A stretch of 64,000 nt of DNA from NCBI GenBank assembly GCA_951406725.2, contig OX597818.1, forward strand, positions 108,438,001 to 108,502,000. Reading direction: 5' to 3'. Positions 1,183 to 64,000 of this stretch are shown in pieces. The notes below the pieces were generated by a model, which ran no database searches, was not told where the DNA came from, and saw nothing but the letters and a program-made list of their open reading frames with translations. How positions within the stretch are numbered: the first letter of the stretch is position 1; each line of letters begins with the position of its first letter. This stretch comes from Octopus vulgaris. Lineage: Eukaryota. The position numbers were made by a program, and so were the translations under genes.

Positions 1183-1490
1183 GTGAGCCTATGGCTGTTG
1201 GTTAGGAGTGTTCAGCTCACAATCATAAGGCTGAGAGTTCAATTCCTGGTGGCACACAGTGTCCTTGAGCAAGACTCTTTATTTCTCATTCCTCCAGTTC
1301 ACTCAGCTGGCAAAAAGGAGTTGTACCAGTATTTCAAACAGCCAGCCTTGTTAAATTCTGTCACGCTGAATCTCCCTGAGAACTGCTTCAAGAGTACACA
1401 TGTCTGTGGAGCACTCAGCCACTTGCACATTAATTTCACGAGCAGGTTGTTCCATTGATCAGATCAACAAAAGAGCCCTCATCATCATAA
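1183..1490 (+). mobile_element. tRNA-derived SINE (family A)
   Basis: A-box/B-box-like head (tggctgttggttagg...gttcaattcc), then gtccttgagcaagac. Body shared with copies at about 35960, 36510 and 46880. Confidence 0.75.
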
Positions 1491-46879: not shown

Positions 46880-47650
46880 GGAGGAGGCGTGTGGCTTAGT
46901 GGGTAGAACATTCAGTTTGCAGTCATACGGTCGTGAGTTTGATTCCTGGCGGCGTGTCTCTTCCTTGGACAAGACACCTTATCTCATGGACCAAAGATTA
47001 TTTCCCAGCATAACATGGCAGTCCTGGTTTAGGACGAATGTTGCTGTAATTTAACCCCAGGAGACATTACAGCAACATTCGTCCTAAACCTGGACTGCCA
47101 TGTTATGTTGGCAAACAATCTTTACTCCAAAGTCCTGTTGCTGAATATCTCTCGTTGTGAGATTTAGAAATTGTAATTTCCACTTTATTTCACCTTGCTT
47201 CACTGCACACGAGCTGTACCAGTAATTCAAATGGGGTTAGCCTTGTCACATTCTGTGTCATGCAGCATCTCCTTGAGAACTATGTTAAGGATACGTGTGT
47301 CTATTGAAAGCAGCAAGCTGGCAGAAATGTTAGCACGCCGGGTGAAATGCTTAGCGGTATTTCATCTGCCGTTACGTTCTGAGTTCAAATTCCGTCGAGG
47401 TCGACTTTGCCTTTCATCCTTTCGGGGTCGATAAACTGAGTACCAGTTACGCACTGGGGTCGATGTAATCGACTTAATCCGTTTGCTTGTCTTTGTTTGT
47501 CCCCCCCCTGTGTTTAGCCCCTTGTGGGTAGTAAATAAATAGGTACGTGTGTCTGTGGAGCATTCAGCCACTTGCACATTAATTTTACAAGCAGGCTGTT
47601 CTGTTCATTGGATCAACTGGAACCATCATCGATGTAACCAATGGAGCATT
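46880..47650 (+). mobile_element. SINE family A hosting two nested insertions
   Basis: Head at 46883. Interrupted by the fold-back element (46987-47180) and by a family B SINE (47305-47543, TSD TACGTGTGTCT at 47292 and 47544). Confidence 0.8.
46987..47180 (+). mobile_element. Fold-back element copy 1 (internally deleted)
   Basis: Inverted arms aaagattattt..cataacatggcagtcctggtttaggacgaatgttgctgtaat plus one-sided tail. Flanking CACCTTATCTCA / CACTTTATTTCA. Confidence 0.85.
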
Positions 47651-48137
47651 AATTAACATACATTCGCGGCCAAAATGTCTGTGGTAGGTTTTATGAACAG
47701 GAAAACGTGGCGGATAAAATAATACGAATGACAGACTGAATAAGAAAGAAAAATAAAAGCTAACACAAAACTACGATATCTGTTCTTCTCTTACTTGTAT
47801 TCACACCTTGTGGGGTGACTGGTTATGTTACAACCTATCTACCACATCAGATGTGCTTATCTGCCACATCAGGTGTGGCAGATAAACTAATTTATTGCTG
47901 TTTTCAATGTAATATTAATAAAAGGAAGAGAAGAAACAGGAGAACGAAGAGGAAGAAGACGAAAGAAAAAATTTTAAGTAATTCTTTCTTCTTCTGCTAA
48001 TCTTCTAGTTCTGGCTACTACAGTGTGAACGTGATTAATATTTGTACTTGCAGACATAGAAAAACACAGAGAAGCAAATATGAACTTATGTAAGACTAAC
48101 TTTCTTGCACAAACACACACACACACAACACACACGC

Positions 48138-48174
<37 letters not shown>

Positions 48175-48347
48175 AGATTTGACTTTGGTGCTAGTTTCTA
48201 TCTCTTTCTATTATATAGACATCACCATCAACCACTGCATTCCAATGTCCACTGTTTAATACTAGTGAGAGTTAGATGTGTATGTCATCTATCGTATCAG
48301 TTCTCTTGCTCAAGGACTGGTGTAATTAGATTTTACTTCCTGCTACA

Positions 48348-48813
48348 TGTAGCGGGAACGTTCAACAGTCAGGTCACTAAATCAGATGTCGCGGTTCGCT
48401 CGAATATTACCCACATGACCAACGAAATCTGACCAATCACGACTTCGCCTAGAACTGGTTCCAGCAACAATACCATCTTTTCGTGCCTTTCTCTCTCAGC
48501 CTATCCATCAGTATATATTCCGTACATCTCAGCTACCTGACAAAGAGCACTGACAGGTGCCATACGAGAAATGGCCAACAACGACGACGGCAGACAGCAA
48601 CTGACAACACAAAAAACATTACAAGCAGTTTAGCACACTAACTCCTGCTACAACAACACCAAGAACAACAACAACAACAACGGAAACTCTCTCGACACAT
48701 TGTCGTTTGTAGTAACGATAATATTAGCTTTTTGTTCACAGGGAAATAAAAATTGTGTTTGTCAAAAGCCTCACCCTTCTCCTGTGTTCTTCGTACAACT
48801 GGTGATCCCGACG
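48348..48813 (+). mobile_element. Single LTR (~450 bp) followed by tRNA-Trp PBS, internal region missing
   Basis: TGTAG...TACA termini (48348-48797), TATA-like gtatatatt near 48511, AATAAA at 48745, then TGGTGATCCCGACG at 48800. Confidence 0.75.
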
Positions 48814-49220
48814 CAAGAAATAGGGCACATGTAACACACTCATCATTGTCTCATGGCTCCATCGATGCTCCTACGTATGTCGGTTGATGTTTGTGGCACC
48901 CACTCACTCCTATCAAACAACTTGTACTCCATCTTTTATGATGACTACAAATCCAATGGATCGTGCATGCCACATGTTATTCCAGGCTCAACACACAGAC
49001 ATACGCATGTAGATTTAAGAGAAACAATGTATGCTGGCCATTAGCAAAGTGATAGATTTCTTTTGAGTCAATGATGTAGAAATCAATTCAACGTACATAT
49101 AAATTGTTTGGCTCCGAAGTCAACCTAAGTTCAGCTCATTCCAGATTAGGACGTTTCAGCGGTGATGAACCCATCTTATTTACAGACATGGTATATCTTG
49201 GATTACAATATTCAATGTGT

Positions 49221-49582
49221 AGTAAAGATTGTTTGCCAACATAACATGGCAGTCCTGGTTTAGCACGAATGTTGTTGTAATTTAGCCCCAGCAGACATCG
49301 TCTTCAGCTGGCTAAAGGACATGATCTGTGCGCTTATATTTTCGAACTAAGGAGAAACAGATATTGTTTTGAGCTGAGCGGAAGGTACTAGATTCCCTTG
49401 TTTGAAAATATAAGGACACAGATCGTGTCGTACAGCCAGCTGGACACGATGTCTCCCGAGGCTAAATTACAGCACCATTCGTCCTAAACCAGGAATGCCA
49501 TGTTATGTTGGTAAACAATCTTTACTACAAAGTACTGTTGCTGAATATTTCACGTTGTAAGATTTAAAAATAGTAATTTTCT
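49221..49582 (+). mobile_element. Fold-back element copy 2
   Basis: ~130-bp inverted arms plus tail. Perfect 14-bp TSD AATATTCAATGTGT at 49207-49220 and 49583-49596. Confidence 0.9.
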
Positions 49583-49649
49583 AATATTCAATGTGTGCTT
49601 CACAATTAATAAAGTGATTGATTTCTTTTTCTACTTTTAATAGACGTCG

Positions 49650-50070
49650 TCTTGGTTATGTTGTAAGAAGCTTGCTTCCCAACCACATGGTTCCATTTTC
49701 AGTCCCACCATGTGGCTCCTTGGGCAAGTGTCCGCTACTATAGCTTCGGACCGACCAAAGTTTTGTAAGTAGATTTGGTAGACGGAAACTGAAAGAAGAC
49801 GGTCCTCTGTGTGTGGGTGGGTGGGTGTGTGAGTGTGTGTGTGTGTGTGTGCATGTGTGTGTCAGTGTTTGCCCCCCCCCCCACCGCTTGACAACCGGTG
49901 CTGCTGTGTCTACGTCCCTGCAACTTAGCAGTTCAGCAAAAAGTTTACAATAAAATAAGCACCAAGCTTAAAAAACAATAAGTACTTAGGTCAATTCATT
50001 CGACGAAAAATTCATCTGACTGAAGTGCTCCAGCATAGCCACAGTCTAATGAGTGAAACCAGGCAAAAAA
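49650..50070 (+). mobile_element. SINE family D, long form
   Basis: gtaagaagcttgcttcccaaccacatggttcc...ggaaactgaaagaag, then (TG)n and the 3' body. Confidence 0.75.
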
Positions 50071-50849
50071 ATAAAGGGTGGGTAGGTTAACTGCAAAGAT
50101 ACTAGGCGATAGCTCTTATTAATTTGTGAAGATATCCTAAGCATGAATTGCCGCGAGTAGAAAACTTCCAAGATCCCCAACACTTGAAATCCAAGGAATT
50201 ACAATAATCAAATTGAATGACAATGGTAAATGAGCAAGCTTCATTCTCGTCAAATGCTAATTAATAGAGCTGCCATTCTATTTCTCTATTAAACTAGTCA
50301 TTCAATAATTGAACTTAATTATTATTCTTATAAATAAAACTGGGGCTGAATGTATCAGGTTATTACTAATATATTGCAGACGCTGAGATCTTATAACTTC
50401 ATTAAATCAAATCCGGGTTTTTAAACAGACAAGAAGCATTTTATTGTGTACAGTTTAACCTCATGCTGTTAAGCAAAACTGAAGTATAAATATCAAGCTT
50501 ACATTTATACAATCATATCAACAGTCATATTCGATAACAATACAAATCTATAATTACTAACGTACGCGTGTATCTCACCTTGACCTTCAGCAAAAATTTG
50601 AGTTCAATTCAACCCTGTTGTCTTTTTTGCAATGTGTGAATGTGTCTACTTGAATAAAGAGAGGGAATCCTCAAGATAAAAATATTTACCCTGATACTTT
50701 GTTAAAGAAATACTTTCATTTTGTTTATCGTGCACCGTATGTGGGGGGTCAAGGTTTGTTTTTCTGAAGAAATGTGAAGAGACTTTAATTGCTAGAATAA
50801 TTCTTTCATTCTGTTTTATTTGCTCTGTAGTATGAGGAATGAGGTGCAA

Positions 50850-51830
50850 TTCACCTACTTCTTCGGTTCTCTTGCAGCGTTGACTTTCCAGCTGGATTAC
50901 ATCCGAAAGGTGCCCTGCCCGCTTACCCTATGGCCAGGACTTAACAGCAAATTCTCTCCCTAACTCCTACATCTACATCGTCCGTCCGCCACGACTGCCC
51001 CAAAGCGAAGAAACCCACATTGGTTCTACTTCCACTCACGTGACTTCCCTCACTCCAGCTCTTCTGGTAGGGCCCCTCAGCCATTGACGTCACTGACCCT
51101 TTACTCCCGGTTCACCTCATTCTCACACGCCTCCCTGACCTCAAAGATCCCCTTTTCACTTTGCTCCATGTTGAAATCTGCCATGCACCTAGGCGGATGT
51201 CTCACTCGTGATCTCTGCAGAGATGGGGCACCGCTCACTTCCCCCCCCCCTCCATCGTTTACAAAGCAACAATTCCGTGAACATCCAAGACATCACGCAG
51301 TATTCCATCCACAGAGACATTATTTTGGGAATTAACTGCCGCCACTGTCCTTCTATTCCACTAAAATGTGCAGCATCCCTTTCGGGGCTTGACCCAGACT
51401 TCATCTCCTACCTGCACGAAGGCAGACTCTCTCTCTCTCTTTCTCTCGTTCTTTCTCTCTCTCTCTCTCCCTCACTCTCTCTCCCTCTCTTCCACAACAT
51501 ATTGCGATGCTGTACACGGGTACCACCATTCATACCTGAATATCGCTCTGTGTGAAACTGACTCCTCGGCCTGTCTTGATCGAGGTGACATGTTGTACCA
51601 AAATACTGCTTCTAGAGGTAAAATGCATTCCCTCTCTGCTCTAACCTTGATCTTGTGATGGTGTCTTTCCATGATTCCATTTCTACTCGATCCGTATGTC
51701 GCTCTGAAGAAGCGGTGCATATTCCACTTATCAAGCGTCTCTTTCAGCACCTCCGAACGAAATGCAGTGCTGCTATCCATCTGCAATTCGTCCACAGGGC
51801 CCCACTCCAGCAATATCTTGTTCAAGATTC
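50850..51830 (-). mobile_element. Gypsy LTR retrotransposon 3' relic: integrase, PPT and start of 3' LTR
   Basis: GPVDELQMDSSTAFRSE...SRNGIMERHHHKIK (rve core) and VGDEVWVK. Purine tract agggaggcg followed by TGTGAGA at 51127 on the minus strand; left LTR boundary uncertain. Confidence 0.8.
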
Positions 51831-51912
51831 GTGCAAACTAGTGGTGGCTCGTGAACTGCAGCACTTTCTATTTCTACTCAATATTATCGATAACATTCAA
51901 TATAATGAGTCC

Positions 51913-52365
51913 CTTTTCTCTTTAATTCTTTCTTTATACTTGTACATTATATAATCCTTAAGTTTAATGTCAGTTGCCATCCCCTAGTTAATGAAAACAA
52001 TGCAAAAATCCTTGTATAGAACTGTGCACAACAGAATTCCAGCAACGCAGGGTACGATTGTTGTGTGCATGCTCACATGTCCAAGAGAGAGAGAGAGAGA
52101 GAATACTGTGTGAACGACAGTACCAGCCCCGGCGTTCCGGGGGAAGGTAGTGTTTCTTTGTGACTCCGTGTGTGTTGTGCTTAAAAACATGTTTATATTC
52201 TTGAATGTGATAAGGTGTAGAATTAGATTTTATCCTGTTTCTGGTTTCAGTGTTGCTACCAGGATTTGAAAAATAGGGCACATTTCTCCCCTTATTTTGT
52301 AATTTGGGGGATTTTTGAAAATCAAAGGGGGATTCGTGGTGGTGTTCAGTGAACAAATTAAACAC
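51913..52365. repeat. Unclassified ~450-bp interspersed repeat, copy 1
   Basis: Reverse complement of 59655-60102 (shared aggattatataatgtacaa, ttcaagaatataaaca, gtttaatttgttcactgaac). Confidence 0.85.
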
Positions 52366-52372
52366 ATTACCT

Positions 52373-52407
<35 letters not shown>

Positions 52408-53306
52408 GATGGGCTTCTTTTAGTTCCATTCTACCAAATCCACTCACAATGCTTGCCCAAAGTGCCACGCAGTGGGACTGAACCAAGAGGCAAGCTTCTT
52501 ACCACACAACCATACCTGCGCCTATTGATAGAGTTCATATATTTTTTATCGTCTCATTAAAGAAATCATCATCCATTATCGTTATAATCAACAATAACAG
52601 CTACAAAACAAGAAAAAATACATTATATCAAGGTTTGTGTAACCAAAGAAAATATGAAACCTGTCCGCGTCCGCTGCTTATGCAACAATGCTGTATATCA
52701 GTGAATTCGTGTAATGTAGCATTTCAACTTTAGTGTGCTTAAATTTTCTTTAAAAGGAAATCAAGGTTATACAGATCGAGTCTACCCGTTCAAAGTTTCC
52801 ACAATGTAGGTTTTGACTTCACGCATTGTCATAAACGTTGTTGACACCAACTACAAAAGAAAATTGATAGGTAGGGCGGGAGTGTCGTTTTCCGGTATAT
52901 TGCGGGTACTAGATGTCCGGTTAATAAATGTGATTCTATCCCAAATTGCTTGTTCAAACATGTCATTCATTACCGAATCTTTAATGCAGTCATTAGAGTA
53001 GAATTCATAGCGAGGAAAGAGAGGCCAACATAATTTAACGCATCTGAGCCGTCATCATCTGTTAAACTTGTACTTGTCTTCTAAACCGTTAACTTCTTAA
53101 TGTCTCAAACACGTTGGCTTGCGGGTAAATATCGAGATTTAAGGGAACAATAAATGGTGAAATAATTAAAGCATGAACATCAATTGGCACGGGGAGATAA
53201 TCGAAATCATTATCGCCTCACGCTAGCTGATCTACATACAGTGGTCCATCAAATATTCAGTTGGACGTATCATCATCATCATCATCATCATCATCAAAGA
53301 CATCAT

Positions 53307-53534
53307 CTATTTCTTTACTACCCACAAGGGGCTAAACACAGAGGACAAACAAGGACAGACAAACAGATTAAATCGATTATATCGACCCCAGTGCGTAACT
53401 GGTACTTATTTAATCAACCCCGAAAGGATGAAAGGCAAAGTTGACCTCGGCGGAATTTGAACTCAGAACGGCAACCGAAATAACGCTAAGCATTTCGCCC
53501 GGTGTCCCTAACGTTTCTACCAGCTCGCCGCCTT
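53307..53534 (-). mobile_element. SINE family B with TSD
   Basis: Full head-core-tail. AAAGACATCAT repeated at 53296 and 53535. Confidence 0.9.
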
Positions 53535-53584
53535 AAAGACATCATCACCATCATTATCATCATCGCAAACGAATGCCATTAAAC

Positions 53585-53950
53585 ACTTGTCCCCAGCGTT
53601 CCCTCTCTTGTATTACTCTTGGTTGTTTGCTCTTCGTCAGACCAAAGTCTTCGGCCAATTGGTCAATAAATGTAATGGCAGAACGACCCATAAGTTGCTT
53701 TCTGTGTGTTGATTCCCACATCTGCGTCTGACTCGTTACTTCATCCTTGCTCCGAAAACAGTTTCTGCAGAATCTGTCTTCTTTCCATTGAGCAGAGACA
53801 ACTCTTGGAAGACTAACATAAAGAACCTGGTTTGTTATATGGGACTGCCATTTGATGTTAGGCGCTGCTTTCTTGTATATATTCTATGTAGTTTCCATTG
53901 CAGTGACTTTTACAGTCCACAAAGTCCAGCCATATAAGGACGAAGTCTCT
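53585..53950 (-). mobile_element. RTE/RTEX-type LINE C-terminal relic
   Basis: NIKWQSHITNQVLYVSLP...WESTHRKQLMGRSAITFIDQLAEDFGL. Confidence 0.65.
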
Positions 53951-53985
53951 TCAAGCAACTATGACTAATATTTCTGATAATGAAG

Positions 53986-54041
<56 letters not shown>

Positions 54042-54042
<1 letters not shown>

Positions 54043-54714
54043 GAATAGACAACACAGCAGAAGGTGATGAGTACAGAATCTGTGGACAAACGGTGAAACC
54101 GTATGGCATATTACTTGCCAATGTATGCCACTAGCCCAGAAGGAATATAAGAGATGCCATGACAATATAGCCAGGCTTGTCCATTGGACACTTTGCAACA
54201 AGTATGGACTTGACAGAGAAAAACACTGGTACGACCACAAACCTGAAGGCATCGTCGAAAATAGAAATGCAAAGATCCTATGGGATTTTATGATTCAGTG
54301 CGACCATGAAATAGAGAATAGGAAGCCTGACATAGTCTTAATTGAGAAAGAAAACAAACTATGCTGGATCATAGATATAGTATGCCCAGCTGACAAGGAA
54401 TGCAATAAGGAAGAAAGAAAAGTCGAGAGATATGACAGGTTAGCTTGGGAAGTTAAGCAATTGTGGTCGATGGAAAAGGTGGTAATAGTACCAATAATTT
54501 TCGGAGCCCTGAGAACAGTGAGCAAAAATTTTGAGAAGTACGTAGAATAAATAGGGGCTGCAATAAGGGCGGAGCACTTGCAGAAAACAGCACTGCTTGG
54601 AACCGCTCGAATACTTCGGAAGGTGCTTGAAAAATAAGATGTGTTACCTTAGTTTACTGGTAGTTAACAGCTGACACTGTAATACATCTCCAGCGTTAGA
54701 AGCTGTGCAAAGGC
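54042..54714 (+). mobile_element. R4/Dong-clade LINE 3' end (zinc knuckle plus REL endonuclease) inside (TAA)n
   Basis: RICGQ..H..C, YKRCHDNIARLVHW, ILWDF, RKPDIVL..WIIDIVCP, VPIIFGAL motifs. (TAA)n on both sides (53986-54041, 54715-54790). Confidence 0.9.
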
Positions 54715-54790
<76 letters not shown>

Positions 54791-55186
54791 GTAGTAGTAG
54801 TTTGATAAATTAGGTTGGTTTTGTTTTGAGTGAAGATGAAGTATATCTAAAACTTCTTTACTCCCCTAAATACTCATAGATTTGCAGCAATTCTCAGGTC
54901 GGAATATTCCAGTTGAAGAATAAATACTTGAATGTAGACTGCCGATCAAAACAGCTTTTTTAATTCAAAGTCTTTTAAAGTTAATTTCATGAGATAATAA
55001 AATACTTTGCGAGCTCAGTTGTTGTAACTTATTTTTGCTTATTGTTGTGAAGTTTTTAGCAGAACGATATCTTTCATTTTATTGGTTTTTTTTAGCAAAA
55101 TAAAAACGATTTAGGCATGTTAGACTTACTGGTTAAGTCTGACCCTTTGCTGGCAGACCATTTGAATACTCGAGCAAACAATTATA

Positions 55187-55420
55187 TATTTCTTTACTAC
55201 ACACAAGGGGCTAAACACAGAGGGGACAAACAAGGACAGACAAACAGATTAAGTCGGTTACATCGACCCCAGTGCGTAACTGGTACTTAATTTATCGACC
55301 CCGAAAGGATGAAAGGCAAAGTCGACTTCGGCGGAATTTGAACACAGAACGTAACAGCAGCTGAAATACCGCTAAGCATTTCGCCCGACGTGCTAACGAT
55401 TCTGCCAGCTCGCCGCCCTA
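55187..55420 (-). mobile_element. SINE family B, young
   Basis: Full length with CpGs retained. Confidence 0.9.
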
Positions 55421-55847
55421 ACAAATATAGGTGGATATAATTAGGGCCCGTCTAAAGCAACATGCCAGAAATTCGTCGATCTGACTGGATCCCGTATATT
55501 GGATCAGCTTACCTGTGAAGGGAAAGTACAATCGTTATTCTGTTTTATTAGACTTTACTCTAGATATATCCAATGCAGAACAACTGACTGTGACAGAGCG
55601 ATGGGGTGGGTTGCGTGGACAGTTGAAAGATTTGTGAAGTTTTGGAGTATAAAAGGTAATAGTGCCAAACTGTTCGTTCAAACGTTTACTTGACTTTTTA
55701 ACCAGAAAATAACATCGATTTGAATGACTGATCTGGCCAATATTATGAGCAACGTGTGTTGTGATCTACAACTACGGATTAAAGTGCTGAGTGAATGTGA
55801 AAATTACGTTCCATGCTTTTCCATTCACTAAATGTTGTCAATGAGCG

Positions 55848-58610
55848 TGTAGTGATCCGACAACGGCGCGCGCTCGCGCACCGCCCATTTGTATTTCGCG
55901 CGTGTTGGTGCCTTTACCAAGGCACAGAAAGGAAGGCCCCTCTCGCGCATGCGCGAACCACCGGTAGCACGACCCTATTGCCTACGTAGCAGTTAGCGAG
56001 GCAAGGGGGTCGTAGAACGTTTGACCGCTAGCAGCAGCAGCAGCCAATGACTTGGGACCCAGCGATTGACGGCGACAGTCACGCATATATTCTCTCCGTC
56101 TGAACTGATTCTAGCAGTCCTTTGGCCGAAGTCCTTACCAAATTGTTGCAGACCAACATCGTCTCCATTGTTCGACGCTATCTTGACCCCTTTCTGGTTT
56201 TAGGGCTGGACATTGTAAATATTACAATCTATTAACTTATCAGCGGTGCGCGCCCGAACCTAGGACATCAGATAACACACTTATTGTTATTGTTTACCAA
56301 GAAAGAGAATAAAGTAGTTAAATGTATATTTTACGTCTGCGTCTTGTTGTTTCTGACTTGTAGAATTCTGGATAATTAACGAACGAGTGAGAGTGATTGC
56401 TTTGTGCACCCCAAAAGTGCACGAGGATATTCACACTTCACACTAAGTTTGTTTCACTGGTGACCCCGACGTGATTCTGGTCTAAAACCAGAGATCACTT
56501 ATCAACAAAAAAAAATCCAGTTTTTCTGCGAAGTCAGAACACGATTTAACTCTACGCATTCATCTTTCGACGATTTGTTTTCCGGCCACCACAAAGTTGT
56601 AGAAGGAGCCTCTTTCTTATTCTACAGCCATGATGACGAACGCCATCACATCATCGATGCCTTTTCTCCACCTTCGTCATCATCATCGTCGTCTGTCTAC
56701 TTCACGTCGTCGCTATCTTCGTCGCCATCATCACTAAGAACGATGTTGTCCCAAGTCCACTACAGTCGCCTTCCACCACCAACGTCGCCTTTCAACACCG
56801 TCGACCTCCACCAAGATGTACATAGCAACTCGCGGAACTTTAGCGTGCACGCTGTTTGTGCATATGCACACCAAGGATAAACAGCACCGTCTATCTACGA
56901 GATTCTTCTGTTCCAGTTAACCTGTCACAGCATTGAAGCCACAACCGCTACACGATATGTGTTCAACCGGCATCTGCATTTTGTGATTTCAACATTTCTG
57001 TTACAGAACGAACTGCTATTGTACATCAGGCTATTACAGACTGGTAAATTAATTCTTGTCTGAAATAGCACTCGAGAGACATTTTTTCTATGCGCTGTAT
57101 TTTTTGTATTTTGCTCGCATTCACCTTGTATGTATTTCTGTCGCACACACGTACACACACATAAATGCTCTCTCTCACATACATACGTCACACATGCTTT
57201 TCTCGCTTGTTTTTTCCATGCTAAATTTGCCTTTTGTGGACACCCCTCATTTCTATAGACCCTAGCGGTCACGTATACATAGAGAGGGTTGTTTGTCCAT
57301 TATAACGCGCCAGCATGTCATACCTTTGTTCCTGTACGAATGAGGCATATAATCGCTTAACCACTGGCATATTCTTGCTGTTTTTTGGTCTGGCAAGCAC
57401 TATTGCATTTCATGCGCCTTTTGCATCGCACGTGTATTGCCTTGTTTTTTGCAACACGTTTGCGTTAGCCTAATTCTTTTCCCGACTCATAGACGTCGGA
57501 TGTTCAAATGCGCTGCGCCGATTTATAGGCGTAATTATTTTTCCCTGTTAGACCACTGTTGGTCACGTAATTAACAGAAAATTATCTGTGTCGCGCATCA
57601 TACCGGCATGTTTGCACTTTTGCCTTTTGTGTTACTAGCGATCTTCTGTCAATTCCATTTTCCTCTCCTGCAGCAATTGATTTAACTGCTATTTTGCAGG
57701 ATCAACTACCTTTAGAGAAGTTGGATTTTAATTTCGCCTAGGTACATTAACTGTGAGTTTTGCTTTTCCCTCCGCTCCTTTCAGCGGAAGGGTTTATACT
57801 TTTGTGACGTATACACTTTCATGCATGCACTCTTGATTTTTGCTCATTAAGTATTTTTTCTCTTTTTCCTTTAGTAAATTTCTTGTGTATGTTATAAATT
57901 TTGCCATTATATTATTGTGTGCTATTTGGTTATCTGGTGTCCACCTTGAGTTTTGCAGTCACTACAATAAGTTTCCTTTCGTGCGTACGCACTGGAGGGG
58001 AGCCTGTAGTGATCCGACAACGGCGCGCGCTCGCGCACCGCCCATTTGTATTTCGCGCGTGTTGGTGCCTTTACCAAGGCACAGAAAGGAAGGCCCCTCT
58101 CGCGCATGCGCGAACCACCGGTAGCACGACCCTATTGCCTACGTAGCAGTTAGCGAGGCAAGGGGGTCGTAGAACGTTTGACCGCTAGCAGCAGCAGCCA
58201 ATGACTTGGGACCCAGCGATTGACGGCGACAGTCACGCATATATTCTCTCCGTCTGAACTGATTCTAGCAGTCCTTTGGCCGAAGTCCTTAACCAAATTG
58301 TTGCAGACCAACATCGTCTCCATTGTTCGACGCCATCTTGACCCCTTTCTGTTTTAGGGCTGGACATTGTAAATATTACAATCTATTAACTTATAGCGGT
58401 GCGCGCCCAGAACCTAGGACATCAGATAACACACTTATTGTTATTGTTTACCAAGAAAGAGAATAAAGTAGTTATATGTATATTTTACGTCTGCGTCTTG
58501 TTGTTTCTGACTTGTAGAATTCTGGATAATTAACGAACGAATGAGAGTGATTGCTTTGTGCACCCCAAAAGTGCACGAGGATATTCACACTTCACACTAA
58601 GTTTGTTTCA
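55848..58610 (+). mobile_element. Complete non-autonomous LTR retrotransposon (Gypsy-type ends, LARD/TRIM-like)
   Basis: LTRs 55848-56456 and 58005-58610 (TG...CA, about 8 small differences), TSD AGCG, PBS TGGTGACCCCGACGTGAT at 56458-56475, PPT GGAGGGGAG at 57994-58002. No gag/pol ORF in the 1.55-kb interior. Confidence 0.95.
56458..56475 (+). promoter_or_regulatory. Primer-binding site complementary to tRNA-Trp 3' end
   Basis: 18-nt reverse complement of ATCACGTCGGGGTCA-CCA, the metazoan tRNA-Trp(CCA) 3' end as recalled. Confidence 0.85.
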
Positions 58611-59654
58611 AGCGTAAAGTTTCTTTGAATTTCTACACAATTTCTTTTGCTTCTATTTTTACTTATGGCATTTCCTTTGTGTGATGTCTATTTGTCCATC
58701 TGGTCATATTCATTTGCCCGTTGTGAAATGAATGCTATATTCCAGGTGATTAGTAGGAGCAGCAAAAATTCTTTCACACAGCTTTTCTGTTGGAAAATAT
58801 GTCTGGGAAAAATGTTCCAAATAACACTGATCAGATGAGAGAATGTTGATGACAGGCTTGTGCTTGATTTTCAACAATGGATTTAGAAATAGAAATAATG
58901 GTCAAACCACTGTGTTTTCTAGCAATGTTCTGGCCAGTTTGTGCGCTTTATGAATCCGTGTGTGGATATATCCAACTATGCTGTCGACTTTTCTGATATT
59001 CAGCAAGAAAAAAAACAAGAATCTGACTGAATGTGAAGATCATTAACAATAAACTCGAAGAGTACACATTCAGGTAAGGTAATTTAGAAGGTACCAACAC
59101 TTTTGTCCCAAGTTTAAAGGTCGAAATATTTATTATTATTTTCAACAATGGATTTAGAAATAGTTTCTGTTTTATGTCAGATCAAAGCGCCAGAAAGCAT
59201 ATAAAGGGATGAGGCTTATGTTTAAGTACCTTTTATCAGCTCCAGTTGTTTAAATCCGAAGAGTGAGGTCATTAAAATCATGTCAAATCATTCCAATAAC
59301 ATCCAGGAGAAAGTTTCAGTGAAGAATTTACGTTGTTTATAGAACTGCTTAAAATTTGTGTTGCTTCTGTTATTGGTGCCAAAAATGAGACTGTGAAGAA
59401 TTACAGTTTTACTGACATTTCTTTGGAGATTATAAAACATCCTCTGCATCTTTGTCACTCATGATCACCTTCAGAGGGGTGTAAAAGTGGAGTGGGGGGT
59501 CAAAAGCAGTGGTGGTCTGTAGATAAAATTAGTTGGGGTGTTGCTTCAGAAAATTTTTAGCCGTTGTTTTAATATTGTGTAAAAGGAAACAAACATATAA
59601 AAAGAAAATTTATATGTAAACCTGATTGGTTCATGTTTTAGCCACTGCCAGTCG

Positions 59655-60102
59655 TGATGCGTTTAATTTGTTCACTGAACTTCACCGTGAATTCCCCCAA
59701 AATCGCAAAATAAGGGAAGTAAATGTGCCCTGTTTTTCAAATCCTGGCAGTAGCACTGAAACTGGAAACAGGATAAAATCTAATTCTGCACTTTATCCCA
59801 TTCAAGAATATAAACACGTTTTTAAGCACAACACACGCGGAGTCACAAAAAACACTACCTTCCACCGGAACACCGGGGTTGGTACTGTCCTTCATGCAGT
59901 GCTCTCTCTCCCTAGGATGAAGCTTCCTATCTCGAACATGTGAGCAAGCTCGCAATAGCCAAACACCGCATCGCTGGAACTGTGAAGTGCACAGTTCTAT
60001 AAAAGGATTTTTGTAATGTTTCCATAAACTAGGGGCTGGCCACTGACATTAAGCTTAAGGATTATATAATGTACAAATATAAAGAAAGAACTAAAGAAAA
60101 AT
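59655..60102. repeat. Unclassified ~450-bp interspersed repeat, copy 2 (inverted relative to copy 1)
   Basis: See 51913-52365. Confidence 0.85.
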
Positions 60103-60245
60103 ATACACGAGTCGTCACTGGTCAAAAGCTAATAATGGACCACTGTGGTTCAAAACTTATTACATAATCTCAATAAAGATTGAACTTAAACATCCACATG
60201 AAACAGAAGTTTCCAGTTTGATCGAAGGGTTTGCTAATGATAATT

Positions 60246-60509
60246 CAGCGGTTCTCAACCGGACCCCTTATGACCCTTTAGGGGTGGAATGAGGGTCCAT
60301 ATAAGACTTTGCTGTTCAGATTTATCGGCAATAAATCGATTACACTCCTTCAATGCACAAAATACTTTAACAATTTTTTAATACAATTCCTAATATTAAA
60401 TGATAAAAGAATAATCGAATTTGTTAAAGATTGAATGGACATTAGGGTCCAGCAGAGTGACATAAGAATCAAAGAGTCTCCATGGGCAAAAAATGGTTGA
60501 GAACCGCTA
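60246..60509. mobile_element. hAT/Charlie-type MITE
   Basis: TIRs CAGCGGTTCTCAACC / GGTTGAGAACCGCTA; 8-bp TSD not clearly preserved. Confidence 0.7.
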
Positions 60510-61109
60510 AATTAAATCCCCAAAATGTAACATTGAAATTGTTGTTTGATGTACAATATTTGATGTGTTATAATATTTATGTGCCTCATTTTATCGATAT
60601 TTAATAAATCATTATTAATAAAAGAAATAACATTTATGTGTATTTTATTACTTTAGGGTCGGTGCCGCCTTAATCCGGTAATTATAAATCATCACAGCAT
60701 CACTGATTGATTGCTTCATCACTTTATAATTTTGAAGGCGAGGGGGAGAGAGGGTTGAGCGTGTCTGGACAAGTCTTTCTGAACGCTTAGTATTGAAGTA
60801 AGGTGACAAATGCTTGAAAATTTCTCTGTAAGACAGGTCTCACTATTTCGACCAATTCCTAAATTATTGTTGTTTAGTCTCAGTTCTATCCTTTTGCAGC
60901 TAACTTTTGATCAAATGTGTTCAAGCCATAACTATACTATTTCTATGTCTTTCCTTGCTTAAGATTGGATTGTGATTTGATAGAGGTTTATCTTCTATTT
61001 CTCCATGGGAAAACGTAGAAACTCTGCTGTTGTTTTGACAATTAGTAACTCTGTAATCGTCACCACCAGCTTATCCCTAAGCTCATACACTCATACTACA
61101 CCTCTATTC

Positions 61110-61265
61110 CTTCTGTCATCATTGTTATTTTATCACGCCTCCCGCATCCACACTTATCACATCTCCAAACTCTTCTTCCTCGGAACCGTAATCTCTGGAA
61201 TTATCTTCCCACTTGGGTATTTCCTGTAAACATCAATTGCTCCCTTTTCGAAGACTCTAAGAGAC
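61110..61265 (+). mobile_element. CR1/Jockey-group LINE 3' relic
   Basis: PRNRNLWNYLPTWVFPVNINCSLF resembles the PRxxxLWNxLP..VFP..LxxFK motif. Similar relics on the minus strand at about 14680-14880, 21000-21230 and 34060-34320. Confidence 0.5.
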
Positions 61266-62338
61266 TGCAAAGATCATAGACCTTAGACATTATCACAAAA
61301 GTTAATTCTTGGAATAAGACAGTTTCTTTCTGGATTCTCACGGAACAAATAAATGATGGCTTTGACTGTATCAAATTATTTTACTCATTTCAAAAACTTG
61401 AATTTCGATAATTCTCAACAAATTTTAGTTTTATGTACCGAATTTCCACGCTGTCATTTTCTGCTAATGAAAAACAACTACCATATTCCTAGTAAAAGAC
61501 CTAAATTTAACCCAAAGACAATGGAGACAACATCCAGATCAGTTTGTGTTGCAAAGTCAAGAAATTACTCAATCATATTCTTATCAGATTCAAAACAATA
61601 AACGCTGTATGTCAATTACTTTTTCCTGGAAATATCCACACTTTCTTAAGCAATTATGAAAACCTCAGGTGAATCTGGCCACAAAACCGATATTCTCTTT
61701 TATAATCCAATAACATAATTTCATAAGTTTTGTTTTACACGAATAGTTTTATAAGAAGCAACTGAAAATTTTCCGGACGACTTTCAGCAACTTAATCTTC
61801 CGATTAGCTTTCATGTAGTCCTTATAGAGACTCGTTAAATTCCAAGTTATGATAGGTTTCCAATACAGAGCGATGTCCTGGGTGGTGAAAAGTATTAGAA
61901 AAGTTTCTTTCAGTTTTCTTTGATTTGTCGGTCTACTTTTTGTGGGGTATTTTTCATGGCATAATCCCCACTGCATCAACTTAAGCATCTCTGCGAAAAT
62001 TTTCCCATATATAATTCTTGACATAGTTTTGAAAGTCATTGTAAAGTCACTTTGTGATCTGCAATGAATATGTGGAAAAACTGAGCAATGTTAGCGCAGT
62101 TGTGCAGAACTTGTAAAATCTGACCAAATGCAATACCTGTGAAAAATAACCAAGCCACAGTGAACAGTTGCTTAGCCAGATTTTCTGGAATTTACGTGTT
62201 TCCTATGCACCATTTTCAAATAATATTTTGCTTGAAGTGTGTAAATGCTCAACAAGAAGATTGTCTTTAGATTATCTGTTAGTGGTTGTAAAGTGATGTT
62301 GGGGTGGGGTACACACAAGCACACACATACATGTATGT

Positions 62339-63041
62339 GGAACTTCGTCGGCGTCCAACCACTGAGCTGAGCGCCGCCGGTTGTCGTAAAGAATCCACTT
62401 TTCATTGCAAGTCACAATCCGGTTGAGAAACGGGTTATTCTTGTTGCGTAAAAGAAGGGAAGACGACACTTCGAAACTGTGGGGGTTTTTTTTTGGGGGG
62501 GGGGGGGGGCACCCATTTCTCAAGTATTTTTGTTTTTCCAATCTCTTTCAAGTGATTGGAAATTGTCGTATACGTTACGTCTAATTCAGAAGCAAAATCT
62601 CGAACAGTTGTGCGTGTATTGGCTTAGACTAAGGCTCTTAGTTGATCGTCGTCAACATCCGATGGCCGACCACTACGCTTATCATCTTCAAGACTCATCA
62701 CCGTTACGAAATTTCTTGAACCACCATTGTGCTGTACTTTCATTAGTGGTTCCTGGGCCAAACGTATCGTTGATATCGCGAGCTGTTTCAGTAGCTTTTC
62801 GGCCTGGCTTGAACTGGAATAAGAAAATTGTGCAAAATTGCTTTTTGTCCATGTTGTATTCAACGTTCCGGAAAAAATGGCCTAATAATTCAAAAAGAAA
62901 AAGAGTAACACGATTAGATAGAGCGAAAAACGGGCTTTAAAATGATATATAAAATCAAAGTAATTTAGCGAAAATTAATTGGAAAATACATAATTTAAAA
63001 TCAAAATTTAAAATTCCGCAAGAACTTTCTTGACAACCTAA
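62339..63041 (-). mobile_element. Mariner (Hsmar1-like) 5' half with TIR
   Basis: TIR TTAGGTTGTCAAGAAAGTTCTTGCGG next to TA. ATG at 62852: MDKKQFCTIFLFQFK...FGPGTTNESTAQWWFKKFRNG..SLEDDKRSGRPSDVDDDQL...FLNRIVTCNEKWILYDNRRRSAQWL. Confidence 0.9.
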
Positions 63042-63231
63042 TATAAAGAAAGATCTTGATGGGTATTTCAGTGATTTACACCACAACACTAGTTTAGGTA
63101 GCTTCTACAAGTAACCTGTGACAACATTCTGACGTCTCTCTGGGGAAGCATTTGTCTACTTATCTCGAAGAAAGTGGAATTAAGTATCAACGTAATTGAT
63201 TCCAGTATATCAGAAAACATTAGTACCTTTA

Positions 63232-63681
63232 CAAAATTACTATTTGTAAATCTCACAACGAGAGATTTTCAACAACAGTACTTTGGAGTAAAGTTTATTT
63301 GCCAACATAACATGGCAGTCCTGGTTTAGGACGAATGTTGCTGTAATTTTAGTCCCAGGAGACATCGTCTCCAGCTGGCTATACGACACGATCTGTGTCC
63401 TTATATTTTCGAGGAAAGGAATCTAGCACCCCAACTCAACTCAAAACAATACCTGTGTATCGCCATTTCCGGGTTATTTCCCTTCATCAGAACAGAATAA
63501 TTGCGATACACAGATATTGTTTTGAGCTGAGTTGGGGTACTAGATTCCCTTTTTCGAAAATATAAGGACACAGATGTTGTGTCGTATAACCAGCTGGAGA
63601 CGATGTCTCTTGGGGCTAAATTACACCAACATTCGTCCTAAACCGGGACTGCCATGTTATGTTGGCAAATTATCTTTACTC
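63232..63681 (-). mobile_element. Fold-back element copy 3 (longest), with HHR core fragment in the loop
   Basis: ~180-bp arms 63284-63463 / 63503-63683. Loop on minus strand AATTATTCTGTT-CTGATGA-AGGG AAATAA CCC-GGAAA. TSD CATTAGTRCCTTTA at 63218-63231 and 63682-63695. Confidence 0.9.
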
Positions 63682-64000
63682 CATTAGTGCCTTTATTTAT
63701 CTGCTGAATTAGAAGTTTCAACAACTTAGTTTATTGTAAGTCAATTATCCATTTTGGAATTGATACAAATATTGGTGCGGTTGATGTTGAGCGTACTTAG
63801 AACCAAAGCGTTCCTGTCGCAGTGAGTATTACTTGATTTGAGATATTTTTGGCTATTTTCCCTCGCAGATAAAGTGACCGTGAGTTTGATTCGAGTTGCT
63901 ATTGCTGTTGTTTGTGTAGTTCTAAGTCCTGGAGGCATTGTGAAAACTGTCAGTTTTACTCATATCTTTGTTCTTCTGTCAACGAAGCCATTTTTCTGAA

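Follow-up and report, generated by a model that had tools for sequence, protein, structure and literature searches.

The three fold-back repeats in the window (the whole 64,000-nt stretch of Octopus vulgaris DNA analysed here) are likely dead insertions of a common non-coding tandem repeat of 353 bases that bears a hammerhead motif. By its anatomy, the family is an animal non-LTR retrozyme. The reading we favour, with reasonable confidence, is that each copy joins two truncated 3' ends of this 353-nt tandem retrozyme head to head and that a Penelope-like RT/GIY-YIG enzyme likely inserted it in trans. The monomer, its motif, two fixed outer ends, independent inner ends and target site duplications (TSDs) were established directly.

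Copies in the window

The first-pass annotation had described three copies which fold back on themselves, carry a one-sided tail and are bracketed by long duplications enclosing that tail; BLAST and folding bore this out for all three (Table 1). A BLAST search of the window with copy 3 as query returned these three copies only; a whole-window repeat search was swamped by microsatellites. Minimum free energies of the folded copies 1, 2 and 3 were -99, -195 and -310 kcal/mol, with the 52-54-nt tail unpaired with the arms. The outer boundaries, which had been called near-identical, are common to the copies except for the left end of copy 1, which differs (TGGACCAAAG). The small tail hairpin is present, but the AAATCTC arm assigned to it is specific to copy 3, the family form being AATATCTC. 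The loop had been taken as a fixed part of the element, but its two sides vary among copies. Copy 1 was inserted into an older SINE-like repeat, which we take to be a tRNA-derived SINE. At window positions 1211-1384, a 66%-identical relative of this repeat spans the copy 1 site with a single target copy, and this one match may serve as weak empty-site evidence for the insertion.

Table 1. Positions of the three copies and their parts in the window.
Feature	Position	Strand	Description
Older SINE-like repeat hosting copy 1	46880..47280	+	
Copy 1	46987..47180	+	Inverted arm (monomer ~218-292) head to head with direct arm and tail (~235-348); without hammerhead
Copy 1, left TSD	46975..46986	+	10/12 match to right TSD
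Copy 1, right TSD	47181..47192	+	Partner of left TSD, 10/12
Copy 1, one-sided tail	47129..47180	+	Between monomer short end ~298 and long end ~352
Copy 2	49221..49582	+	Inverted arm (monomer ~169-298) and direct arm with tail (from near hammerhead 3' side to 352); core absent
Copy 2, left TSD	49207..49220	+	14/14
Copy 2, right TSD	49583..49596	+	14/14
Copy 3	63232..63681	-	Inverted arm (monomer ~121-298) and direct arm with tail (monomer ~80-352)
Copy 3, upstream TSD	63682..63695	-	13/14
Copy 3, downstream TSD	63218..63231	-	13/14
Copy 3, one-sided tail	63232..63284	-	Small hairpin 63268-63248
Copy 3, type I hammerhead motif	63452..63496	-	Stem I 5' 63496-63491; core 63490-63484; stem II/loop 63483-63470
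Copy 3, hammerhead, 3' part		-	GAAA, stem III and AUA 63469-63458; predicted cut 63458/63457; stem I 3' 63457-63452

Tandem monomer and coding content

The family comprises thousands of copies in the genome, and its true unit is a tandem monomer of 350-353 nt, which contains a complete type I hammerhead motif but lacks a long ORF. In an array of 3.1 units (locus L038; period 350, 97% identity) the hammerhead core occurs once per unit, at 1593, 1943 and 2293. The only ATG ORF of at least 25 AA in this array is 28 AA long, recurs in each unit and has its ATG inside the hammerhead core. At locus L053, no stop-free frame longer than 73 AA overlaps the unit, and no RT + GIY-YIG ORF was linked to the unit in the copies examined. 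The assignment as a retrozyme rests on the tandem monomer (~170-400 nt), one type I hammerhead motif per unit and no protein coding, and the non-autonomous, retrozyme-like nature proposed in the annotation is supported.

The copies could also be 5'-truncated pseudo-LTR stubs of an autonomous Penelope-like element (PLE) instead of a separate non-coding unit. Their anatomy is that of a described PLE insertion, with an inverted truncated copy, a tail and a TSD (PMC8557442 and PMC3846280, parts available to us), and the 28 codons opened by the ATG in the core are loosely like a lizard PLE whose ORF starts in the hammerhead. However, 20 of 21 segments reaching the monomer start (from loci not picked by the junction query) are preceded by the end of the previous unit and one by the inverted arm; none of the 21 is preceded by an ORF or by other shared sequence. 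ORF-less tandem arrays also exist, and with 113 elements examined this origin is improbable.

Hammerhead motif

The CUGAUGA core was found in 87 of 89 motif matches and the stem I strands TCTGTG and CACAGA in 68 and 70, respectively; these counts depend on the pattern used for the search. Ahead of AUA, stem III forms the palindrome ATCGCGAT, and 19 of the 89 matches are fully intact by our criteria. Stem III and an NUH site, whose absence from the consensus loop would have spoken against the annotation, are present, and the motif is a real type I hammerhead motif. The core already noted in copy 3 (CTGATGA-AGGG-AAATAA-CCCG-GAAA, 63490-63466) was confirmed on the same strand as the tail; compared to the family form, this hammerhead has three changes (stem I closing base, stem III palindrome and stem I 3'). 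At the foot of stem II, 220 exact genomic matches carry an A.G/A.A mismatch and 4 carry A-U, so hammerhead activity may be low. An Rfam scan of the window end and of the loci L038, L126 and L174, the check suggested by the annotation, gave no hammerhead at E ≤ 10 and only sub-threshold miRNA hairpins; an Rfam match is a detection test and lies outside the published retrozyme definition, which used motif descriptors.

A sister family (62% identity, z = 15) keeps the hammerhead fold, with U3:A8 replacing C3:G8 in 42 of 42 matches; its stem III is also palindromic but differs in sequence. Both retrozyme families retain, via compensatory change, a hairpin immediately past the long end (27/48 and 18/22 exact).

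In the model of the annotation, it was the fold-back unit that moved as RNA, stem I was lengthened by the long arms, and the short copies had lost their loop by hairpin deletion. The outer boundaries are indeed common and most copies palindromic, and at locus L003, where the inverted arm ends short of the motif, stem I forms with probabilities of 0.84-0.99, flanked by the arms. Nevertheless, stem I is a local 6-bp helix (TCTGTG/CACAGA) within the 353-nt monomer, and in copy 3 it is blocked by the left arm, which captures its 3' strand (pairing probability 0.0). The unit is the tandem monomer, and the fold-backs are insertion products. Several results speak against hairpin deletion: there is no correlation between arm lengths (rho 0.03, n = 24), arms often continue into the previous monomer, and inner junctions differ from copy to copy among the copies aligned. 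We therefore consider a mobile fold-back unit highly improbable.

Many arms read through an intact hammerhead motif, and no clear excess of inner ends is seen at the predicted cut (4/48 within 120-135). A depth dip near the first hammerhead of L038 was discarded as a sign of cleavage; it coincides with private changes of that unit and is absent in the second unit.

Outer ends and target site duplications

Head-to-head elements accounted for 90 of the 113, namely 75 short/long, one long/long, no short/short and 14 with an unscorable end. When both ends were scorable, 75 of 76 copies paired an end at ~298 with an end at ~352, ~54 nt apart; since roughly one in four of the 113 elements came from a short/long query, this pooled count is biased. 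Among 29 copies selected solely with a 29-mer from the arm, 25 were inverted, all of them short/long. The sister family is short/long in 12 of 16 inverted copies (no same-end, 4 other). In both inverted copies of an intact Penelope element with a 781-AA RT + GIY-YIG protein, where 40 nt separate the ends, the pairing is short/long as well.

An adjacent duplication scoring ≥ 8 was detected for 47 of 75 genomic copies compared to 5 of 1500 shuffled flank pairs, the remaining 28 copies having no scorable adjacent TSD. The TSDs lie around the whole structure and, as the annotation had expected, are variable (8-17 bp, mode 12-13) and not fixed at 8-9 bp. Together with the inverted, 5'-truncated head-to-head copy and the one-sided tail, they constitute the Penelope-type insertion marks which had been proposed.

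Long inverted repeats and a high copy number are also what a MITE or fold-back DNA transposon would offer. Here, however, the repeats are not terminal, the tail is one-sided, and TSD and arm lengths vary; there are also tandem monomers, and the hammerhead shows covariation from one family to the other. Such an origin deserves next to no credence. The palindromes pose an annotation risk: they would pass for MITEs or, because the best Rfam matches are sub-threshold miRNA hairpins, for miRNA precursors.

Arms and junctions

Of 24 copies compared, 12 have a tail-less arm that exceeds the tailed one by > 20 nt, and 6 show the reverse. Junction overlaps have a median of 2 nt versus 0 in simulations (p = 0.0012). 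Arms within one copy share private variants at 0.51% of non-CpG sites versus 0.14% between copies, whereas the concordance of arms at diagnostic sites rested on 4 sites and was uninformative. Median non-CpG divergence of the family is 3.8%; the sister family is young (96-98% identity). Later asymmetric deletions could mimic independent arm truncation.

The same retrozyme and a Penelope-type enzyme could also have formed the inverted arm by self-priming, either by cDNA fold-back or by antisense-template priming, with later deletions shaping the centre. Self-priming was proposed for rotifer PLEs (PMC3846280, part available to us) and agrees with the private variants shared by the arms, the short overlaps at the junctions and a divergence which implies enough age for later deletions. 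However, a copied-back arm should sit within its template arm, while the tail-less arm is the longer one in half of the copies and sometimes enters a previous unit missing from the tailed arm. Moreover, the young sister family also has both arrangements, and shared variants are equally expected when one RNA or one source locus served both cDNAs. Altogether, we regard self-priming as unlikely.

Proposed insertion mechanism

The mechanism we infer as the best is twin priming, in which reverse transcription begins at two internal start sites and is primed by the two nicked strands. A probably dimeric enzyme would nick the two strands of the target with an offset of ~10-14 nt, and each target 3' end would prime reverse transcription at one internal start site (monomer ~298 or ~352) of a multimeric or circular RNA template. 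Synthesis of each cDNA would end independently of the other, and short microhomology would serve to join the two; the outcome would be a palindrome with a one-sided tail of 54 nt and a TSD. Tandem copies would act as sources, whereas the stubs are likely dead because they are without the sequence beyond the long end and their ribozyme is often masked.

A coupled form of twin priming is put forward tentatively, as a possibility: a dimer seated on the 54-nt tail, with the conserved hairpin past the long end as its guide, would mobilise circular retrozyme RNA, and one cDNA would begin at each tail edge, from the two nicked strands. If true, this would explain the inverted repeat, the one-sided tail and how an RNA circle lacking a 3' end can be the template; its by-product would be thousands of 60-400-bp hairpins that undergo hyper-editing wherever host transcription reads through them. 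A point against twin priming is that strict short/long pairing requires coupling, whereas the lizard enzyme in vitro is without strand bias in the start site (PMC11167929, part available to us).

Search for a partner enzyme

No autonomous partner for the retrozyme was found in a GIY-YIG search, in which 150 of 6136 candidates, dominated by one family, were scored, so that members of further PLE clades may have escaped it. Intact PLEs occur elsewhere in the genome, but none of 36 PLE loci had sequence in common with the unit, save a neighbouring sister-family insert, and the autonomous Penelope with the same tail that the annotation had suggested looking for was not among them. The repeat end of the intact PLE has no similarity to this retrozyme family (z = -0.8) and gave no BLAST match; this PLE inserts in (TA)n and its hammerhead has the other core variant.

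Comparison with known systems

Animal non-LTR retrozymes are tandem units of 170-400 nt (Cervera & de la Pena 2020; Li, Clavereau & Pollet 2026; PMC7229834; bioRxiv 10.64898/2026.07.22.740005; parts available to us). The octopus family resembles them in one type I hammerhead per unit, no protein, GC < 50%, TSDs > 4 bp and co-occurrence with PLEs, but most octopus copies are not arrays; they are stubs with two arms in head-to-head orientation and a Penelope tail. The available parts of PMC7229834 and bioRxiv 10.64898/2026.07.22.740005 describe no inverted insertions, tails or octopus family; they report retrozyme circles and self-cleavage in coral, mussel and axolotl. In the same parts, the case for a dependence of retrozymes on PLEs is built on shared ribozymes, co-distribution and phylogeny (PMC7229834; bioRxiv 2026.07.22.740005). 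A retrozyme family which itself bears the full Penelope insertion signature is more direct support for mobilisation by PLEs.

Complex insertions of endonuclease-positive PLEs likewise consist of an inverted 5'-truncated copy, head to head, with a tail at one end; they have 8-10-bp TSDs around the whole structure, and the tail of 30-40 nt is optional (PMC8557442, PMC3846280, available parts). The octopus family differs from them in being without an ORF and in its tail of 54 nt. Strict short/long pairing is not stated in the available parts of these two papers, in which the origin of the Penelope inverted repeats and tail is described as unresolved. The near-strict short/long rule and the independent arm lengths separate twin priming from self-priming.

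The Anolis Poseidon (PAc) protein nicks and extends both strands in vitro and uses two internal start sites which bound the tail; it is a predicted dimer, has AT-rich targets and takes uncleaved RNA as template (Frangieh et al. 2024, PMC11167929, part available to us). The start sites, the use of both strands, the AT-rich targets and the uncleaved template would be shared with the octopus family, but PAc is autonomous and has no strand bias in its start site, and the part available to us does not model the inverted repeat. With two start sites and a candidate cis-hairpin named, the proposal is testable in this published assay.

For PLE hammerheads, the U3-A8 variant and a palindromic helix III have been described (Cervera & de la Pena 2014, PMC4209133, part available to us). 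The octopus motif resembles the PLE type I hammerheads in its palindromic helix III, an extra base after position 9, the adjacent G-C pair and U3-A8 in relatives. Unlike these, its helix II is short (3 bp and an A.G mismatch), leaving one more unpaired base before GAAA, and the motif is undetected by Rfam models. Literature searches returned no paper on an octopus retrozyme or on PLE twin priming; Dfam or Repbase may already list the family.

RNA reads

Between 1242 and 1648 RNA reads per run were aligned, in both directions, and 67-71% of them continue into unlike flanks. Read ends did not pile up in the 3 runs of one study (~6% of each read set, standard cDNA libraries). The reads look like read-through of host transcripts and not like an abundant free circle. 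They also suggest A-to-I hyper-editing of the arms; an edited-looking 30-mer is absent from the genome, but a flank control from the same reads is absent too, so this comparison shows little. As a lead only regarding cross-species spread, six runs, which carry five different organism labels, had shares of 0.51-0.73 in a run search.

Family size and repeat unit

The retrozyme family to which the three fold-back copies in the window belong is real, of high copy number and old, and it usually occurs in the genome as two-armed insertions of Penelope type. The copies lie where the first-pass annotation had placed them, each folds back on itself and has the described one-sided tail (52-54 nt), and each is enclosed by its own duplication. 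When copy 3 was searched against the 64-kb window, no relatives beyond these three were found; across the 2.8-Gb assembly (227 contigs), it gave 3838 first-look candidates. A 29-mer from the arm has 946 exact occurrences in the genome. Of 61 arms in loci selected through a different motif, 8 carry it unchanged, which roughly suggests about 7,000 arms or 4,000 elements. Copies diverge by ~3.8% at non-CpG sites, and CpG decay is strong.

The hairpin had been taken for the mobile unit; the unit is a tandem monomer of 350-353 nt. In a 25-locus alignment, arms and tail are conserved, the centre varies from copy to copy, and the sequence 5' of the hammerhead continues into the tail of the preceding unit. 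Locus L038 is an array of 3.1 units (period 350, 97% identity) with a hammerhead core in every unit, and among 21 segments reaching the monomer start, taken from loci outside the junction-query set, 20 are preceded by the end of the previous unit and one by an inverted arm. The only ATG ORF of at least 25 aa encodes 28 aa. This frame, which opens within the hammerhead core, is loosely similar to the arrangement in the lizard Penelope-like element (PLE), whose ORF begins inside its hammerhead.

Positions of the features described (plain numbers are window positions, L-numbers are loci of the same genome)
Feature	Position	Strand	Remarks
Copy 1	46987-47180	+	duplication identity 10/12
Copy 2	49221-49582	+	duplication identity 14/14
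Copy 3	63232-63681	-	duplication identity 13/14
LINE-type reverse transcriptase frame, 610 aa	9077-10909	-	RVT_1 E 5e-30
121-aa frame	51472-51837	-	
159-aa frame	54071-54550	-	
28-codon frame	L038:1596-1682	+	ATG within hammerhead core, every unit
Sister retrozyme family, young	L079:28-296; L109-L138; L126 array	L079 (+)	362-nt tandem unit, U3:A8 core
Young intact Penelope-like family	L081:1445-3787, L082-L108	L081 (+)	781-aa RT + GIY-YIG frame
Other GIY-YIG-bearing family	L086:3828-4400, L092:3867-4499		3' region duplicated in tandem, ~290-330 bp
Unrelated short palindrome	L013:3224-3277	both	CTGATGA...GAAA pattern

According to PMC7229834, animal non-LTR retrozymes are built of tandemly repeated units 170-400 nt long, contain a type I hammerhead and have target-site duplications (TSDs) >4 bp; the octopus family agrees in all three respects. 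Retrozymes (PMC7229834; bioRxiv 10.64898/2026.07.22.740005) and Penelope insertions are both known kinds. In a search of the published literature, no description of an octopus retrozyme, of inverted tailed retrozyme insertions or of PLE twin priming was found.

Hammerhead motif

The predicted hammerhead motif, with stem III and a cleavage-type site, was recovered in the family form, TCTGTG-CTGATGA-AGGG-AAATAA-CCCG-GAAA-TCGCGA-TA|CACAGA, in which stem I is local (6 bp), stem II short and stem III palindromic, with an AUA site. Among 89 motif matches, conditioned on the search pattern, the core is canonical in 87, and 19 meet all our criteria for an intact motif. The Rfam scan returned no hammerhead match at E ≤ 10, and at the base of stem II 220 exact genomic matches have an A.G or A.A mismatch vs. 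4 with A-U; both count against the hammerhead reading. The arms had been proposed to extend stem I. This was not borne out, since in copy 3, whose motif carries three changes from the family form, the left arm captures the stem I 3' strand (stem I probability 0.0), and stem I does form (0.84-0.99) in L003, whose arm ends before it reaches the motif.

Insertion structure

Head-to-head arrangement was found in 90 of 113 distinct elements, about a quarter of whose loci were fetched by a short/long query. The outer ends of these 90 pair a short end (monomer position ~298) with a long end (~352) in 75 cases, are long/long in one and short/short in none, and include an unscorable end in 14. In a set picked by the arm 29-mer alone, 25/29 were inverted, all 25 short/long. 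Adjacent TSDs, long and variable as annotated (8-17 bp, mode 12-13), flank 47/75 short/long copies vs. 5/1500 controls, and their ends often have a few bases in common with the element ends. The two inner ends vary independently of each other (rho -0.06, n=75), either arm crosses the unit junction in some copies, and junction overlap has a median of 2 nt vs. 0 simulated (p=0.0012). By eye, inner ends in the arm-picked set seem clustered at monomer 213-244 (15/48), a self-complementary stretch; the clustering may also reflect a bias to short arms.

We infer a two-primer mechanism, in which a staggered double nick in the target would supply two primers. On multimeric or circular RNA, one of them would begin copying at ~298 and the second at ~352, and the two cDNAs would stop independently and then be joined through microhomology. 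Such a course of events would explain why the insertions are palindromic, have a tail on one side and a TSD, and are free in their centre. Copying by simple fold-back, for which the nearest published idea is self-priming (PMC3846280), predicts that one arm always lies within the other, which 12/24 copies contradict unless later deletions occurred. In these 24, arm lengths are uncorrelated (rho 0.03); the tail-less (inverted) arm is longer by >20 nt in 12, the tailed (direct) arm in 6, and 6 are near equal. Private variants are common to the arms of the same copy at 0.51% vs. 0.14% for different copies, an excess which fits fold-back copying and the two-primer model alike. The short/long pairing is a mechanistic rule open to testing.

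Near the start sites, a hairpin 10-12 nt beyond the long end is kept by compensatory change between this family and a sister family (exact in 27/48 and 18/22). The fold-back stubs end before this hairpin and thus are likely dead.

Penelope-like elements and the sister family

The enzyme that inserted the retrozyme copies is probably of the Penelope class. An inverted truncated copy with tail and TSD is the described PLE insertion pattern (PMC8557442 and PMC3846280), and the main retrozyme copies show the same. For the lizard PLE protein, PMC11167929 reports that both strands are nicked and extended, that two internal start sites bound the tail, and that the protein is a dimer by prediction and uses uncleaved RNA.

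In the octopus genome, 16/150 scored GIY-YIG matches sit in the 781-aa open frame, whose GIY-YIG domain is C-terminal. This intact family has a tandem period of ~4.7 kb, targets (TA)n, carries a minimal U3:A8 hammerhead at the repeat end, has its two ends 40 nt apart (a 40-nt tail) and shows short/long pairing in 2/2 inverted copies seen. Comparison with the two retrozymes revealed no detectable common sequence (z -0.8 and 0.0). With this and its (TA)n targets, which the main family does not use, the intact family is at most a candidate partner of the main retrozyme. No hammerhead was found by our motif pattern in the other GIY-YIG-bearing family.

The sister family, first met adjoining a PLE locus, has 62% identity to the main family over 276 nt and gave 2734 candidates, with copies 96-98% alike. 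Its hammerhead has other stem I letters and a different stem III palindrome, and the fold is retained with U3:A8 in 42/42 matches. PLE hammerheads show U3-A8 covariation and a palindromic helix III (PMC4209133); the latter is common to both octopus families and U3:A8 occurs in the sister family. With the intact PLE, the sister family has the core variant and the (TA)n target in common and no alignable sequence. Short/long ends occur in 12/16 of its inverted copies (two of which may be one duplicated locus), same-end pairs in none and other ends in 4.

RNA reads

Three RNA-seq runs of one study were used, ~6% of each. Reads matching L038 numbered 1648, 1356 and 1242 per run, in both directions; 67-71% continue into unlike sequence, and piled-up read ends were found nowhere on L038 in these samples. 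The reads look like read-through of host transcripts. In one loose end, at L038:1709 and 2059 and supported by 33-56 reads in each run, 7/10 A positions of the family sequence are read as G, and the remainder of the 30 nt is unaltered; genomic arms have at most two changes of that kind among 172 arms. A-to-G clusters of this kind arise when a long hairpin undergoes A-to-I hyper-editing. Host transcripts may carry fold-back arms edited in this way. The evidence comes from RNA reads, and the flank control from the loose-end reads is absent from the genome searched, as is the edited-looking 30-mer, so the editing is unproven.

Other reading frames in the window

The 610-aa frame has a weak PHD-finger match and is presumably RTE-like. 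By eye, the 159-aa frame resembles the end of a non-LTR retrotransposon that bears the restriction-like endonuclease, and the 121-aa frame a retroelement integrase fragment.
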